From NCBI RefSeq assembly GCF_057098645.1, contig NZ_CM169472.1: a DNA stretch of 64,000 nucleotides. One strand, 5' to 3'. This document shows, piece after piece, positions 25,710 through 54,259 of this stretch; position 1 is the first letter of the stretch; each line of letters starts with the position of its first letter. Position numbers and translations under genes: made by a program. The notes under the pieces were generated by a model. It saw only the letters and a list, made by a program, of their open reading frames with translations, searched no databases and had not been told where the DNA came from.

Positions 25710-25814
25710 CGTCTGTCACATGGTAGACTGGCCCCCTGAATCTCCAGACAACCAGTATCACTTAAATAAGTGATAGTCTTAATACTAGTTTTTAGACTAG
25801 TCATTGGAGAACAG

Positions 25815-26180
25815 ATGATTGATGTCTTAGGGCCGGAGAAACGCAGACGGCGTACCACACAGGAAAAGATCGCAATTGTTCAGCAGAGCTTTGAACCGGG
25901 GATGACGGTCTCCCTCGTTGCCCGGCAACATGGTGTAGCAGCCAGCCAGTTATTTCTCTGGCGTAAGCAATACCAGGAAGGAAGTCTTACTGCTGTGGCC
26001 GCCGGAGAACAGGTTGTTCCTGCCTCTGAACTTGCTGCCGCCATGAAGCAGATTAAAGAACTCCAGCGCCTGCTCGGCAAGAAAACGATGGAAAATGAAC
26101 TCCTCAAAGAAGCCGTTGAATATGGACGGGCAAAAAAGTGGATAGCGCACGCGCCCTTATTGCCCGGGGATGGGGAGTAA
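25815..26180 (+). CDS. insC: IS2 InsC (OrfA) transposase component, 121 aa
   Basis: [52 protein letters not shown]... Confidence 0.92.
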
Positions 26181-27043
26181 GCTTAGTCAGCCGTTGTCTC
26201 CGGGTGTCGCGTGCGCAGTTGCACGTCATTCTCAGACGAACCGATGACTGGATGGATGGCCGCCGCAGTCGTCACACTGATGATACGGATGTGCTTCTCC
26301 GTATACACCATGTTATCGGAGAGCTGCCCACGTATGGTTATCGTCGGGTATGGGCGCTGCTTCGCAGACAGGCAGAACTTGATGGTATGCCTGCGATCAA
26401 TGCCAAACGTGTTTACCGGATCATGCGCCAGAATGCGCTGTTGCTTGAGCGAAAACCTGCTGTACCGCCATCGAAACGGGCACATACAGGCAGAGTGGCC
26501 GTGAAAGAAAGCAATCAGCGATGGTGCTCTGACGGGTTCGAGTTCTGCTGTGATAACGGAGAGAGACTGCGTGTCACGTTCGCGCTGGACTGCTGTGATC
26601 GTGAGGCACTGCACTGGGCGGTGACTACCGGCGGCTTCAACAGTGAAACAGTACAGGACGTCATGCTGGGAGCGGTGGAACGCCGCTTCGGCAACGATCT
26701 TCCGTCGTCTCCAGTGGAGTGGCTGACGGATAATGGTTCATGCTACCGGGCTAATGAAACACGCCAGTTCGCCCGGATGTTGGGACTTGAACCGAAGAAC
26801 ACGGCGGTGCGGAGTCCGGAGAGTAACGGAATAGCAGAGAGCTTCGTGAAAACGATAAAGCGTGACTACATCAGTATCATGCCCAAACCAGACGGGTTAA
26901 CGGCAGCAAAGAACCTTGCAGAGGCGTTCGAGCATTATAACGAATGGCATCCGCATAGTGCGCTGGGTTATCGCTCGCCACGGGAATATCTGCGGCAGCG
27001 GGCTTGTAATGGGTTAAGTGATAACAGATGTCTGGAAATATAG
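26138..27043 (+). CDS. insD: IS2 InsD (OrfB) transposase catalytic component, 301 aa
   Basis: DDE integrase-core ORF overlapping insC in the -1 frame. Confidence 0.92.
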
Positions 27044-27121
27044 GGGCAAATCCACATGGCAGGTGAGCAATCATGTCTGATGCTGATGTGAACACCTGCC
27101 CAAATGAGCCATCCTGACCCA

Positions 27122-43541: not shown

Positions 43542-44789
<1,248 letters not shown>

Positions 44790-44792
44790 CTA

Positions 44793-44814
44793 AAACATAG
44801 CCTTTGCTATGTTT
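44793..44814. promoter_or_regulatory. MntR operator palindrome (AAACATAGCCTTTGCTATGTTT) in mntH promoter
   Basis: Perfect inverted repeat 13 bp upstream of mntH start codon; matches known MntR box. Confidence 0.75.
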
Positions 44815-45115
44815 CATGCTATGCCAAACGAGAATGATTATCAAATTCATTTAAATGGGTTGTGGTGATTTCTCTGATAGACCAGGATGATGACTACGAA
44901 AAGATTGATGACTTGAATGTTATGGTTATGTTTAATGTTAGCACATTTACATAACTTTCAGCTTCCATACACAACATAGCAGAAATGTATGACAGCTCAC
45001 TATTTTTGAAGCTTGTCACAGGACGTCATTATAGTGTGTGTCAGATCTCGTTTTCCTTAACCATGTTACATAGAATGTGCACGGAAATTTAACCTGCCTC
45101 ATATTTGGAGCAAAT

Positions 45116-46318
45116 ATGGACCGCGTCCTTCATTTTGTACTGGCACTTGCCGTTGTTGCGATTCTCGCACTGCTGGTAAGCAGCGACCGCAAAAAAATTC
45201 GTATCCGTTATGTTATTCAACTGCTTGTTATCGAAGTGTTACTGGCGTGGTTCTTCCTGAACTCCGACGTTGGTTTAGGCTTCGTGAAAGGCTTCTCCGA
45301 AATGTTCGAAAAACTGCTCGGATTTGCCAACGAAGGGACTAACTTCGTCTTTGGTAGCATGAATGATCAAGGCCTGGCATTCTTCTTCCTGAAAGTGCTG
45401 TGCCCAATCGTCTTTATCTCTGCACTGATCGGTATTCTCCAGCACATTCGCGTGTTGCCGGTAATTATCCGCGCAATTGGTTTCCTGCTCTCCAAAGTCA
45501 ACGGTATGGGCAAACTGGAATCCTTTAACGCCGTCAGCTCCCTGATTCTGGGTCAGTCTGAAAACTTTATTGCCTATAAAGACATCCTCGGCAAAATCTC
45601 CCGTAATCGTATGTACACCATGGCAGCAACGGCGATGTCCACCGTGTCGATGTCCATCGTTGGTGCATACATGACCATGCTGGAGCCGAAATATGTCGTT
45701 GCGGCGCTGGTACTGAACATGTTCAGCACCTTTATCGTGCTGTCGCTGATCAACCCTTACCGTGTTGATGCCAGTGAAGAAAACATTCAGATGTCCAACC
45801 TGCACGAAGGTCAGAGCTTCTTCGAAATGCTGGGTGAATACATTCTGGCAGGTTTCAAAGTTGCCATTATCGTTGCCGCAATGCTGATCGGCTTTATCGC
45901 CCTGATCGCCGCGCTGAACGCACTGTTTGCCACCGTGACTGGCTGGTTTGGCTACAGCATCTCCTTCCAGGGCATCCTGGGCTACATCTTCTATCCGATT
46001 GCATGGGTGATGGGTGTTCCTTCCAGTGAAGCACTGCAAGTGGGCAGTATCATGGCGACCAAACTGGTTTCCAACGAGTTCGTTGCGATGATGGATCTGC
46101 AGAAAATTGCTTCCACGCTCTCTCCGCGTGCTGAAGGCATCATCTCTGTGTTCCTGGTTTCCTTCGCTAACTTCTCTTCAATCGGGATTATCGCAGGTGC
46201 AGTTAAGGGCCTGAATGAAGAGCAAGGTAACGTGGTTTCTCGCTTCGGTCTGAAACTGGTTTACGGCTCTACCCTGGTGAGTGTGCTGTCTGCGTCAATC
46301 GCAGCACTGGTGCTGTAA
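45116..46318 (+). CDS. nupC: NupC nucleoside:H+ symporter, 400 aa
   Basis: CNT-family ORF starting [14 protein letters not shown]. Confidence 0.92.
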
Positions 46319-46329
46319 GACCATACATA

Positions 46330-46360
46330 AAAAAGCCGGGGATAATTCCCCGGCTTTTTT
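46330..46360. terminator. bidirectional rho-independent terminator between nupC and pdeA
   Basis: AAAAA-GCCGGGGA-taat-TCCCCGGC-TTTTTT. Confidence 0.75.
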
Positions 46361-46367
46361 ACGCCTG

Positions 46368-48557
46368 TTAATCAGCTAATGGCTGCGGGCGACCAATCAA
46401 ATACCCTTGCAGATATTGCACCCCGAGCTTATGCAATAGCGCCTGTTGCTGTTGCGTCTCGACAAACTCCGCGACCACACTCAATGACTTCGCTTTCGCC
46501 AGATCGGTAATTGATCTAACAATCATCGCATCCAGCGTGTTCGTGACGATATCTTTCACAAAGACGCCATCAATTTTGATGATATCAGCCTGCAAACGCT
46601 TTAACCGTTCGTAGTTGGCATAGCCGGTGCCAAAGTCATCAATCGCAATCCGGAAACCAAACTTATGCAGCTGCTCGATGTTGTACATGCTGCTTTCTGC
46701 GTTAGAAAACGCCTGCTCCTCGGTGATCTCAAGAATGACCGCCTGCGGGGAGATGTGATAACGCTTAAATAGACGAATAATCCGCCCGGCAATATTCTTT
46801 TGCAGCAGCGTGAGCGGCATTAAATTAACTGAAAAGCGCGGGCCTTTTTTGTCGCAAGGGTGTGTTGCCAGCCACTTCAACAAGGATTCCAGCACTTGCA
46901 AATCAAAACGCGCGCTAAGGTTAAACTGAGCAATAAGGGGCAGAAACTTATCCGGGGTCATAATGCCGCCGTCATATTTCAGTCGCGCGAGGATCTCATC
47001 ATAACCTTCACCTTCTTTGTTGCGAATTGGCTGGGCGTAGAGCAGCAAATCACCCTGATCTAACGCCGTGCGAATGGTATTCAGCAATAGCACCTGTTTA
47101 GTGGTCTGCCCGGAAACCATCTCCTCTCTGCTATCCAGCGCCAGCACATGATGATGTGCGCAGGATTGCTCCGCCAGCCAGCTTAACTGCCCCAACAAGG
47201 GTTGCAGGGTTTCCTGATTTCCATCAAAACGCCCCCAGGCAGCACCATAGCCCATATCCAGCCCGGTATTGTTCCAGTGAATTTGCCGACTATTCAGGAT
47301 GTTAACCATATGCTGGAGTCGCCCTTCCGTTTCCGGCCCGCTCAGCACTAACAGCAGTTCACTACCCGGCAATTGATACAACTTTTCGTTTTCCTGCATC
47401 AACGGCAGCAGCGTACGGTAGATTGAGCGGATACAGTGAACGCGCATCATTAAGCCGTAATGACGACTCATAAACTCAAGATTATCAATGCGCAGGCAGC
47501 AAAAACTCTTGCCCACCTCTTGCTCCGGTGCTTGTTCCAACGCACGAAAGTTGGGTAGGAGCGTTAACGGATCAGTCAGCGCCTGCAAATGCCAGCGGCG
47601 ATTAAGCCATTCACTGCGATGATAAATGCGCACCATATAGAGCAGGCAAACGCTAAAGGAAATCAGCACCGCAAGAATAAATGCCAGCGAATATTCGGTT
47701 TCCCCCCCTTGCAAAAAGTTCTGGTTGTAATTCAGCAGGCAAAGCGTTGAAACAGCCCAGGTGAGATTTAAAAACGGATAGCGAAGCTTACCGACCCCGA
47801 GGGTAAAGATGATGAAGAAAACGGGTACCAGGTAACCGGCAATAAAGTCGTTTTCATAAGGTGTGCACAACAGAAGTAGCAGCACGCTTAACGCTGCCAG
47901 CCAGCTTAAGGTAAATGCGCGTTTCTCTTTGCCCAACGACGGAGCGATATCCCTGCGCCACAATATCTGCGCAAAGTGGGGACTTACAATCATGCGAGTG
48001 AGATAGTAGAAAAGCATGTTGTAAATCAGCACAGCGGTGAAAAGGCTTAGCAAATCAACGACCGTGAAAATGGCATCCGCATCGCCGAAAAAGGTGGATA
48101 TCTTTAGCGGGAAATCAAAGAAGCTCCCCACAAGATACATGCTGCATTTGATGCCGATCGGCGTCACCAAACCAAGCCAGAACAGACGTTGCCAGACATA
48201 TCGGCTGGTCAATCCATAACGCCAACGCGTCCCCAGCTGCCAGCGCAATATTGCGCAGGCACACAACACGACAAACGTCTGGCTACCGAGCATGACCGCA
48301 GTCTGTAAAAAAGAGAGATGAAAGTTCCACAGATTGGTGCAAAACATCCCGCATAAAACGGGAACGACACCGCGCCAGCCAAAGATAAACAAGATTGACA
48401 GCATTACGCACAGTGGCATCCACGCCAGAAAGATATAACTGGAATGGATAATGGCAAGTGGCGAAATAAAACGGGAAAGCTGAATAAGTACCACGGTGAG
48501 CGTAAACGCTAGTGTGAATATCTTGATATTTTTTATCAGGTTATGCTCCACAAACAT
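46368..48557 (-). CDS. pdeA: PdeA (YfeA) membrane-anchored EAL-domain c-di-GMP phosphodiesterase, 729 aa
   Basis: MASE1-like membrane region, degenerate GGDEF, EAL domain; start taken at MFVEHNLIK. Confidence 0.88.
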   Translation of the reverse strand: MFVEHNLIKNIKIFTLAFTLTVVLIQLSRFISPLAIIHSSYIFLAWMPLCVMLSILFIFGWRGVVPVLCGMFCTNLWNFHLSFLQTAVMLGSQTFVVLCACAILRWQLGTRWRYGLTSRYVWQRLFWLGLVTPIGIKCSMYLVGSFFDFPLKISTFFGDADAIFTVVDLLSLFTAVLIYNMLFYYLTRMIVSPHFAQILWRRDIAPSLGKEKRAFTLSWLAALSVLLLLLCTPYENDFIAGYLVPVFFIIFTLGVGKLRYPFLNLTWAVSTLCLLNYNQNFLQGGETEYSLAFILAVLISFSVCLLYMVRIYHRSEWLNRRWHLQALTDPLTLLPNFRALEQAPEQEVGKSFCCLRIDNLEFMSRHYGLMMRVHCIRSIYRTLLPLMQENEKLYQLPGSELLLVLSGPETEGRLQHMVNILNSRQIHWNNTGLDMGYGAAWGRFDGNQETLQPLLGQLSWLAEQSCAHHHVLALDSREEMVSGQTTKQVLLLNTIRTALDQGDLLLYAQPIRNKEGEGYDEILARLKYDGGIMTPDKFLPLIAQFNLSARFDLQVLESLLKWLATHPCDKKGPRFSVNLMPLTLLQKNIAGRIIRLFKRYHISPQAVILEITEEQAFSNAESSMYNIEQLHKFGFRIAIDDFGTGYANYERLKRLQADIIKIDGVFVKDIVTNTLDAMIVRSITDLAKAKSLSVVAEFVETQQQQALLHKLGVQYLQGYLIGRPQPLAD

Positions 48558-48764
48558 GAGTACACTACTCTCACTGATCGGGGTTTTCAGGCACACAAAT
48601 AATAAGTTTATTCGCATCGCGAAGCAAACAGGGGCCATCCTGTTGCCGATTTTTCATCCAATGATGCTTTCACCAGGCGGCGCTAACCCGGACGTAGACT
48701 GTATTACAAAAGCGGCAAAAAGCAGAGACAAAAAACCCCCGCTTTGCAGCGAGGGTTGGAAATT

Positions 48765-48840
<76 letters not shown>

Positions 48841-48879
48841 ACGATGCGTTTACGTACCAAATTTGCTGGGTGCAAAATT

Positions 48880-48955
<76 letters not shown>

Positions 48956-49190
48956 GTCACGTAAAGCTTGTCGAGTTGACGGGCGGCATCATATGAATTC
49001 CGCCCGAATGTGTCAACGGCAAATTGCAGCGTGTAGTTTCAATCGCTGAAAAATCAGGCAAATGAACAATTTTGGAAAACCGCTCGCATTCAGTAGTTAT
49101 TCATGTCACGGTTTCCTGTAAAGTGGTGCTATAAAATGAACTACTAATAGACCCACATACATTCAGGGAATTGTTATGTTCAAGGAGAGG

Positions 49191-49535
49191 ATGACGCCAG
49201 ATGAACTTGCCAGACTGACCGGCTATAGCCGCCAGACCATTAATAAATGGGTACGCAAGGAAGGCTGGACGACGTCACCAAAACCAGGCGTCCAGGGTGG
49301 CAAAGCCCGACTGGTTCACGTCAATGAACAGGTTCGTGAATATATTCGTAATGCTGAACGTCCAGAAGGTCAGGGAGAAGCGCCTGCCCTTTCTGGTGAT
49401 GCGCCGCTTGAAGTATTGCTGGTGACACTGGCGAAAGAGATGACGCCAGTTGAACAAAAACAGTTTACATCCTTGCTTCTGCGGGAAGGGATTATCGGAT
49501 TGTTACAACGCTTAGGGATTCGCGATAGCAAATAA
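49191..49535 (+). CDS. yfeC: YfeC DNA-binding protein, 114 aa
   Basis: HTH N-terminus; paralogous tandem with yfeD. Confidence 0.85.
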   Translation: MTPDELARLTGYSRQTINKWVRKEGWTTSPKPGVQGGKARLVHVNEQVREYIRNAERPEGQGEAPALSGDAPLEVLLVTLAKEMTPVEQKQFTSLLLREGIIGLLQRLGIRDSK

Positions 49536-49536
49536 T

Positions 49537-49929
49537 ATGAAAAGATTACGCAATAAAATGACCACCGAAGAACTGGCTGAATGCCTCGGTGTGGCTAAAC
49601 AAACAGTTAACCGTTGGATCAGAGAAAAAGGCTGGAAAACGGAAAAATTTCCCGGCGTGAAAGGCGGTCGTGCCAGACTTATTCTGGTCGATACGCAAGT
49701 TTGCGAGTTTATTCAGAACACGCCAGCCTTCCATAACACACCGATGCTTCTGGAAGCCGAAGAACCCCTTGCCGAATACGCACCGGGGATTCGCACTCCT
49801 GCTTATCGGCAAATCATAAGCGCAATAGACAACATGACTCACAGTGAGCAGGAAAAAGTTGCGCAATTTTTGTCACGCGAAGGAATTCGTAATTTCCTTG
49901 CTCGTCTCGACATAGATGAATCAGCTTGA
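49537..49929 (+). CDS. yfeD: YfeD DNA-binding protein, 130 aa
   Basis: Paralog of yfeC with the same TTEELAECLGVAKQTVNRWIREKGW HTH. Confidence 0.85.
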   Translation: MKRLRNKMTTEELAECLGVAKQTVNRWIREKGWKTEKFPGVKGGRARLILVDTQVCEFIQNTPAFHNTPMLLEAEEPLAEYAPGIRTPAYRQIISAIDNMTHSEQEKVAQFLSREGIRNFLARLDIDESA

Positions 49930-49968: not shown

Positions 49969-51177
49969 TCAGGCTGTCGCCTGAATCATTTCGGTGGGTT
50001 CCTGCTTCAACGAGTGGCCTGACTGCACCATCTCTCCACAGGCAAGAACGGCGTGCCCCGCCGCTAAAATGTTACGAGCGCCGTTTACATCGGCGCTCGC
50101 TGTATATCCACATACCTGGCATCTGAATTTACTTTGTGACAGGCGATTTTCTTTCGCTGTATGACCACAGCACGCGCAACGCTGGCTTGTGTACGCTGGC
50201 GGAACAGCAAGCACCTGACCGCCTCGCCAGAGCTGCTTGTACTCAAGCTGGCGGCGCATTTCATACCAGCCCTGATCCAGTATCGAACGGTTTAAACCTG
50301 ATTTTGCCCGGACATTGCGCCCCGGCTGGCTGACCGTACCCGCTGCTGACTTTGACATGTTGCTGACCTTCAAATCCTCAATGACTATCATTGCGTGGTT
50401 TTTGCTGACGGTCGTTGTGACTTTGTGAAGGTAGTCTCTGCGGATATTTGCGGTACAGGAATGCAGTCGCTGTATTTTGCGTTTCTGCTTCTGCCAGTTA
50501 TTGCTGAATTTGACCTTGCGGCTTAACTGTCGCTGAAGTCTCGCCAGCGTCTTCTGGTTTTTCTGAAAACTGTTTACAGGCTCAAAGACTGTGCCATCTG
50601 ACAGCGTGGCGAGTTTAGCCACGCCAGCATCCAGTCCGACCATTGATGCTGAAGGGTGAACCGGAGTTGATACTTCACTTTCTGTCTGAATACTGATGTA
50701 CCACTTACCGCAGGACTGGCTGACAGTGACATTTTTCACAACACCCGTGACCTGACGGCTGTTCCGGTAGCGCATCCAGCCAAGTTTCGGCAGAAAAATA
50801 CGGCTGTTTTCCTGATCGAGCTTAACGCCCTGCTGGTAGCGGAATGCATCATTCTGTCCCCGCTTTTTGAATCGGGGAAAAGCAGCCCGCTTCTGGAAGA
50901 AGTTTTTGTAAGCCCGCTCAAGGTCTTTCAGTGACTGTTGCAATGGCTGTGAGGGCGAATCTTTAAGCCATTGCGTTTCAGTGGCGTTTTTCCACTCAAC
51001 CAGCCAGGAAGCCATTTTCCCGTAAGGGATGTGTTTATTACCGGCCTCATGATTCTCATTCTGACGTGCCAGAGCACGATTGAAAACGAAACGACATGCA
51101 CCTGCGAAGCGCCTCATTTCACGCTCCTGTTGACCACCGGGTCTTAACTGGAATTTAAATGCCTGTAGTCGTTTCAC
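49969..51177 (-). CDS. tnpB: TnpB (IS605 OrfB family; RuvC-like RNA-guided nuclease fold), 402 aa, apparently intact
   Basis: RuvC motifs ([23 protein letters not shown]) and zinc finger CACCGH...CQVCG. Confidence 0.85.
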
Positions 51178-51184
51178 AGGCCAA

Positions 51185-51615
51185 ATGATACTTTGGTCTG
51201 TGAAAAAAGAAACCGATATCCGGCGTGGAAGGCATTGTGTTTTCCTGATGCATGTTCACCTGGTCTTTGTCCCAAATACTGACGCCAGGTTTTTGACCAT
51301 GACGCGACAGAAAAACTACGCACTTACTTTTCAAATGTATGTGCTGATTTTGAAGCTGAACTGGTTGAAATGGATGGCGAACCAGATCACGTCCATTTGT
51401 TAATTAACTATCCTCCCAAACTGGCGATATTCAGTCTGGTAAACAGCCTCAAAGGCATATCGAATAGGTTACTGCGACGAGATCGACCAGATATTGCAGT
51501 CAGGTATTACTACAAAGGCGTTATGTGGAGTCCTGGCTATTTTGCCAGTAGCTGCGGAGGTGCGCCAATATCCGTCATCCGCCAATACATTGAACAACAG
51601 CAAACACCTGGTTAG
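51185..51615 (+). pseudogene. IS200-type Y1 (HUH) transposase TnpA, disrupted by frameshift
   Basis: N-terminal part (HCVFLMHVHLVFVP) in one frame and C-terminal part (MDGEPDHVHLLINYPPKLAIFSLVNSLKG...WSPGYFASSCGGAPISVIRQYIEQQ) in another. Confidence 0.75.
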
Positions 51616-53917: not shown

Positions 53918-54259
53918 ATGGCCACTATCTCTTCAACTTCAATTCCTTCCATACAAACACAGAGTAGTAACAGGGCATCACAAGGTAGCGATGTTGCTTC
54001 ACAAATCGCGCGGATAAGTCAGCAAATCATCAAACTCACTCAACAAATTAAAGAGATTGTAGACACTAGCGGCAGTGCTGAAGACAAACAAAAACAGGCC
54101 GAATTGATTCAACAGCAAATCACCCTACTGGAAACACAACTGGCGCAGTTGCAGAGACAGCAGGCAGAAAAGGCGCAGGAGAAAGAGCAGCGTTTGTCTC
54201 TGAATATATCCCTTCTAAATCCTGTTGAAAATACGACTCATATCGATATCTATATCTGA
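53918..54259 (+). CDS. small Q-rich coiled-coil protein, FlxA-like (113 aa)
   Basis: Ser/Thr-rich N-terminus then Q/K/E coiled-coil ([11 protein letters not shown]...[27 protein letters not shown]); GAGGA RBS; occupies the position of xapR-xapB-xapA-yfeN in K-12. Confidence 0.6.

Follow-up and report, generated by a model that had tools for sequence, protein, structure and literature searches.

Unoccupied IS186 target within a predicted bidirectional terminator between nupC and pdeA in an Escherichia coli genome of the O145:H28 lineage

Results

The nupC-pdeA spacer and its hairpin

In the window, meaning the whole 64-kb stretch of DNA that was analysed, nupC and pdeA converge on a short intergenic spacer with the sequence GACCATACATAAAAAAGCCGGGGATAATTCCCCGGCTTTTTTACGCCTG (Table 1). 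The gene names were taken from the RefSeq annotation of the O145 strain RM9872, which is collinear with the window in this part and has identical coordinates. According to the sequence and the list of open reading frames, the stop codon of nupC (TAA) occupies positions 46316-46318, and that of pdeA, which reads TTA on the + strand, positions 46368-46370. The site carries no IS186, as neither the insL transposase gene nor the 23-bp inverted repeats of the element were found there; moreover, the 23-bp terminal repeat of IS186 and an internal 30-mer had no exact match anywhere within the 64-kb window. A preliminary description of this DNA had claimed a 49-bp spacer free of IS186 between the two genes, and both points were borne out by the sequence, the open reading frames and the match searches.

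Table 1. Coordinates of the genes and sequence features at the nupC-pdeA site (positions in the window)
Feature	Position	Strand	Remarks
nupC (nucleoside:H+ symporter), 3′ end at the spacer	45116-46318	+	ORF 45077-46318; same CDS coordinates in RefSeq RM9872
nupC-pdeA intergenic spacer, convergent genes	46319-46367		49 bp; sequence and ORF list
Bidirectional intrinsic-terminator-like hairpin (predicted)	46329-46360		folding on both strands; terminator scan on + strand
A-run (A6)	46329-46334		gives U6 on - strand RNA
Left stem arm, GCCGGGGA	46335-46342		
Unoccupied IS186 target motif GGGG(ATAATT)CCCC, hairpin core, GGGGATAATTCCCC	46338-46351		motif match
Bases duplicated around IS186 in occupied genomes	46339-46350		10 bp GGATAATTCC (46340-46349), up to 12 bp
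Loop TAAT	46343-46346		4 nt
Right stem arm, TCCCCGGC	46347-46354		
T-run (T6)	46355-46360		serves + strand
pdeA (yfeA), c-di-GMP phosphodiesterase gene, 3′ end at the spacer	46368-48557	-	ORF 46368-48638; RefSeq CDS in RM9872

The spacer contains a single hairpin, located directly downstream of both convergent genes, between the stop codon of nupC, ending at 46318, and that of pdeA, beginning at 46368. Its stem comprises 8 bp, with seven G-C pairs and one A-T pair. RNA folding of 66 nt gave free energies of -26.8 kcal/mol for the + strand and -31.9 kcal/mol for the - strand, corresponding to z-scores of -5.6 and -6.9, respectively, and none of 200 shuffled sequences was as stable. A consensus terminator scan reported the site on the + strand only; despite this call, the RNA of the - strand presents the same stem followed by UUUUUU, so that the transcript of either strand has a U-tract immediately after the stem. 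Furthermore, an Rfam scan of positions 45900-46800 gave no match above the gathering threshold; the weaker ones all centre on the hairpin, belong to unrelated families (Thr_leader, at 28 bits where 55 are required, SpF25, ar35 and others) and reflect the terminator hairpin alone. The arrangement is that of bidirectional intrinsic (Rho-independent) terminators, with a G+C-rich hairpin between an A-run and a T-run placed 10-13 bp from each stop codon, and no difference from them is apparent by sequence. Thus, the hairpin is predicted to be a bidirectional intrinsic terminator common to nupC and pdeA, in line with the one bidirectional terminator that had previously been proposed for the spacer and with its A6 and T6 runs and strong folding on both strands.

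The occupied locus of MG1655

The preliminary description had placed an IS186 copy at this site in K-12 MG1655, and NC_000913.3 indeed annotates 'insertion sequence:IS186C' at 2514273-2515617 with insL3 (b2394), between nupC (b2393) and pdeA (b2395); the element is therefore present at the site in the reference genome. Alignment with NC_000913 around nupC-yfeA placed the window on both sides of IS186C. In particular, BLAST yielded two alignments, covering window positions 43574-46350 and 46339-49925, while the IS186 part of the MG1655 locus remained unaligned. Positions 46339-46350 belong to both alignments, and these 12 shared bp are the target duplication. The MG1655 junctions read ...AAAAAAGCCGGGGATAATTCC / CATAAGCGCTAACTTAAGGGTTG...CAACCCTTAAGTTAGCGCTTATG / GGATAATTCCCCGGTTTTTTT..., and the element, with its two 23-bp inverted repeats included, is 1339 bp long. 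It is located inside the hairpin and flanked by a direct duplication of GGATAATTCC. This duplication comprises 10 bp, but as the terminal bases of the element are C...G, it can be read as up to 12 bp. Only one arm of the former terminator is left to each gene. The MG1655 locus has the same flanking genes, the same spacer sequence and the same position in the hairpin as the window, which differs in having neither the 1339-bp element nor the duplication. That the strain is not MG1655, as had also been claimed, was confirmed by the identity of nupC (98.6%) and pdeA (99.2%) to that genome, the closest identity being to the O145:H28 group.

A single base of the stem also differs between both genomes, the equivalent of window position 46354 being T in MG1655 and C in the window. 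This outermost stem base is C in 'ST-131' as well, and T in KLY, STECUZB006, 720632, HS and O121 201805972. With a T at this position, the outer pair of the stem would be G-U instead of G-C on one strand and a mismatch on the other.

The IS186 target motif and the states of the site in E. coli

The motif GGGG(N6/N7)CCCC has its sole match in the 64-kb window at position 46338, in the exact N6 version. The first consensus for IS186 insertion is reportedly due to SaiSree et al. 2001. In mutation-accumulation lines, the target of IS186 was found to be 5′-GGGG(N6/N7)CCCC-3′ (Lee et al. 2016, PMC5009759), with only 19 N6 and 35 N7 sites in the K-12 genome, some of which were struck many times, repeatedly and independently, and either orientation was found at one site because the motif is palindromic (PMC5009759). 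The site described here has the same exact N6 motif in non-coding DNA and, in natural genomes, receives the element in either orientation, as those published target sites do, while its copy in the window is unoccupied. As this exact and only N6 motif forms the core of the hairpin, the empty spacer combines the predicted terminator with an intact IS186 target. Literature searches combining IS186 with nupC or yfeA did not retrieve the nupC-pdeA site in the searchable literature.

A total of 5426 complete E. coli genomes were considered for the population counts. The site was contiguous, that is, empty, in 4460 of them (82%). Another 472 genomes carry IS186 oriented as in K-12, and 465 have it reversed at the identical position, the latter count being derived from a synthetic junction query. 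The remaining genomes, about 28 by subtraction, have something else at the site, an example being Stbl4, with an IS2 under the match at the junction. Annotation confirmed that the transposase gene is flipped in 720632, STECUZB006 and HS with respect to the MG1655 strand, and ATCC 8739 also belongs to the class with the opposite orientation. Altogether, 937 genomes (472 + 465) were occupied, which represents about 17%. Moreover, a query joining a fryC segment with an internal IS186 segment had a median of one matching place per genome, so more than half of the genomes lack IS186, and the 937 occupied genomes would amount to at least about a third of those carrying the element. The absence of IS186 is thus the majority state, which excludes K-12 and about 17% of genomes and identifies nothing else. 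Regarding the use for strain identification that the preliminary description had seen in it, the empty site does tell the strain apart from K-12, but it is a weak marker, being shared by 4460 of the 5426 genomes.

These counts also bear on the reading that the absence of IS186 is an assembly artefact, with the repeat collapsed out of the window. We consider this extremely improbable, given that the same contiguous arrangement is found in the finished O145 genome RM9872 and in the 4460 complete genomes, and that the empty site has a single copy of the 10-12 bp that are duplicated in the occupied genomes.

Apart from these states, two strains showed further changes at or near the site. In 2020CK-00188 (NZ_ABACVG020000001.1, compared locus 620-760), the nupC-pdeA spacer is 142 bp long and comprises, in this order, the hairpin, a REP-like palindrome (GCCTGATAAGCGTAGCGCATCAGGC) and the hairpin once more in a slightly degraded form (GCCGGGGATAATTCCCTGC), an arrangement suggestive of the insertion of a small element that duplicated the terminator. 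In strain 720632, an ISKpn26-like element of the IS5 family interrupts pdeA (compared locus 4518-6300), besides the reverse IS186 downstream.

Flanking haplotypes of the occupied sites

Seven occupied loci (MG1655, KLY, 720632, STECUZB006, HS, O121 201805972 and 'ST-131') were compared with the window over 2.1 kb of the left and 1.6 kb of the right flank. All seven have identical junctions, ...GGATAATTCC/IS186/GGATAATTCC..., and at least three flank haplotypes were found among them. MG1655, with the element in forward orientation, and STECUZB006, with the element reversed, differ by one SNP in the 3.7 kb of flank and have identical IS copies. HS (reverse) and O121 201805972 (forward) have a second haplotype in common, one SNP apart from each other and 25 SNPs from K-12 on the left. 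The third haplotype is that of 'ST-131' (forward), with 40 and 38 SNPs from K-12, and these differences reach to within 95 bp of the element on the left and 15 bp on the right. Since the occupied sites lie on at least three haplotypes, two of which carry both orientations, the nupC-pdeA site is a natural hot spot of IS186.

Between K-12 and HS, the 25 SNPs fall in the 2.1 kb of the left flank, none closer than 461 bp, and one SNP was found in the 1.6 kb of the right flank, which suggests a recombination boundary in or near nupC. As for 'ST-131', import of the K-12 insertion by recombination was considered and found unlikely, given its own SNPs at 15-95 bp from the element.

Both orientations could also go back to a single ancient insertion, which subsequently underwent inversion at the site and was spread by homologous recombination. 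None of the seven occupied loci deviates in its junctions or duplication, and their IS186 copies differ by only 0-2 SNPs, as a single old insertion would leave them, and the perfect 23-bp terminal inverted repeats could in principle recombine to invert the element. Nevertheless, we regard this history as rather unlikely: with SNPs of 'ST-131' as near as 95 bp and 15 bp, its import would need crossovers almost at the ends of the element, and a cut placed precisely relative to the motif would yield identical duplications in independent events. In addition, single motif sites in the mutation-accumulation lines received IS186 more than once, in independent events and in either orientation (PMC5009759). 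The identical junctions are most simply accounted for by recurrent insertion at a precisely defined hot spot, and such recurrence fits the experimental behaviour of the element (PMC5009759).

The O145:H28 lineage of the window

Positions 34000-58000 of the window were 100.0% identical (to one decimal place) to UTME-3, Z1323HEC0399 and Z1323HEC0422, which group with O145:H28 genomes. Identity was 99.9% with named O145:H28 strains and fell to about 98.9% with O55:H7 and O157:H7. On this sequence identity, the window is assigned to the O145:H28 lineage. The presence of IS186 elsewhere in the lineage was checked with a distant 900-bp fryC segment and one 400-bp internal IS186 segment, at megablast sensitivity and on chromosomes only. 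A total of 25 chromosomes, most of them named O145 or O145:H28, were 100% identical to the window in the fryC segment, and none of the 25 had a match to the internal IS186 segment, with a single matching place each. The internal segment also had no match on the O157:H7 chromosomes among the matches listed. Therefore, the lineage appears to hold no element to fill the site.

Past occupation has to be weighed against these results, namely that the site of an ancestor once held IS186, which was lost by precise excision or replaced by an empty allele via recombination. Such a past retains a small probability because precise excision of IS186 leaves no trace; moreover, IS186 is found at this hot spot in 937 genomes and on several haplotypes, and recombination is visible nearby in the uneven flanks of K-12 and HS (25 SNPs on the left, only one on the right). 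Yet no IS186 match was found on the 25 lineage chromosomes or on the O157:H7 chromosomes listed, the empty site is the majority state, and motif and hairpin are perfect in the window, without any footprint. We thus hold past occupation in this lineage to be very unlikely.

Several other differences were observed in the window. RM9872 is 100% identical over 1.1 kb around the site, yet it is not collinear with the whole window, which carries 1.33 kb more (about 25724-27052) and has other DNA ahead of 7324. UTME-3 is collinear over about 6944-64000 except for the same 1.33 kb, and the earlier DNA matches it in two short stretches only. The segment of about 1.33 kb (25724-27052), absent from both RM9872 and UTME-3, is inserted between ypdI and yfdY according to the RM9872 annotation, and it contains two + strand open reading frames that overlap, one of 136 aa (25770-26180) and one of 301 aa (26138-27043), in keeping with a putative IS2. 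Positions 1-6944 differ from the fadJ-fadL-yfdC region found upstream of dsdC in RM9872, and the two short stretches of 96-98% identity match the lambdoid prophage beside dsdC in UTME-3; with only these two stretches in common, the window has a different prophage variant. Furthermore, the annotation of the collinear UTME-3 places an element of the IS200/IS605 type between yfeD and gltX (49969-51615), with a TnpB-family gene and a frameshifted tnpA, while gltX directly follows yfeD in MG1655 without such an element. Finally, a gene for a 'FlxA-like family protein' lies at 53918-54259, between the tRNA-Lys/Val cluster and yfeR, by reference to the collinear UTME-3. K-12 presumably has xapR-xapB-xapA-yfeN near tRNA-Lys/Val-yfeR, which would make this the 'xap replacement' of the window.

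Discussion

The empty nupC-pdeA site of the window is very probably the ancestral form, with the predicted terminator and an intact IS186 target, which stays unfilled for want of IS186 in the lineage. In the mechanism that we propose, the hairpin should end transcription of both convergent genes, while its core, GGGG-ATAATT-CCCC, also serves the IS186 transposase as recognition sequence. Insertion of IS186 into the hairpin, with a duplication of 10-12 bp, has split the predicted terminator in K-12 and in about 17% of sequenced E. coli. In the O145:H28 lineage, where the site was probably never occupied, the ancestral terminator would have survived as no element was there to fill the site.

Both the IS186C locus of K-12 and the target motif of IS186 are already documented, and the empty site is an ordinary strain difference. 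The modest addition made here is that IS186 uses the predicted terminator between nupC and pdeA as a natural hot spot, in either orientation. It is conceivable, though we assign it a low probability, that this terminator has been struck by IS186 repeatedly, independently and in both orientations in wild E. coli with a high occupancy, of at least about a third of the genomes bearing IS186, that reflects selection on read-through into pdeA or nupC and not target preference alone. If that is true, each insertion of IS186 would remove the common terminator of the genes for a nucleoside transporter and a c-di-GMP phosphodiesterase.

The presence and orientation of IS186 at the site provide a cheap marker on the scale of a PCR, and this marker varies even within phylogroup A (K-12 vs. 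HS and ATCC 8739). Moreover, K-12 represents the atypical state at this locus, so that what is measured there for the 3′ ends and the expression of nupC and pdeA may not hold in wild strains.
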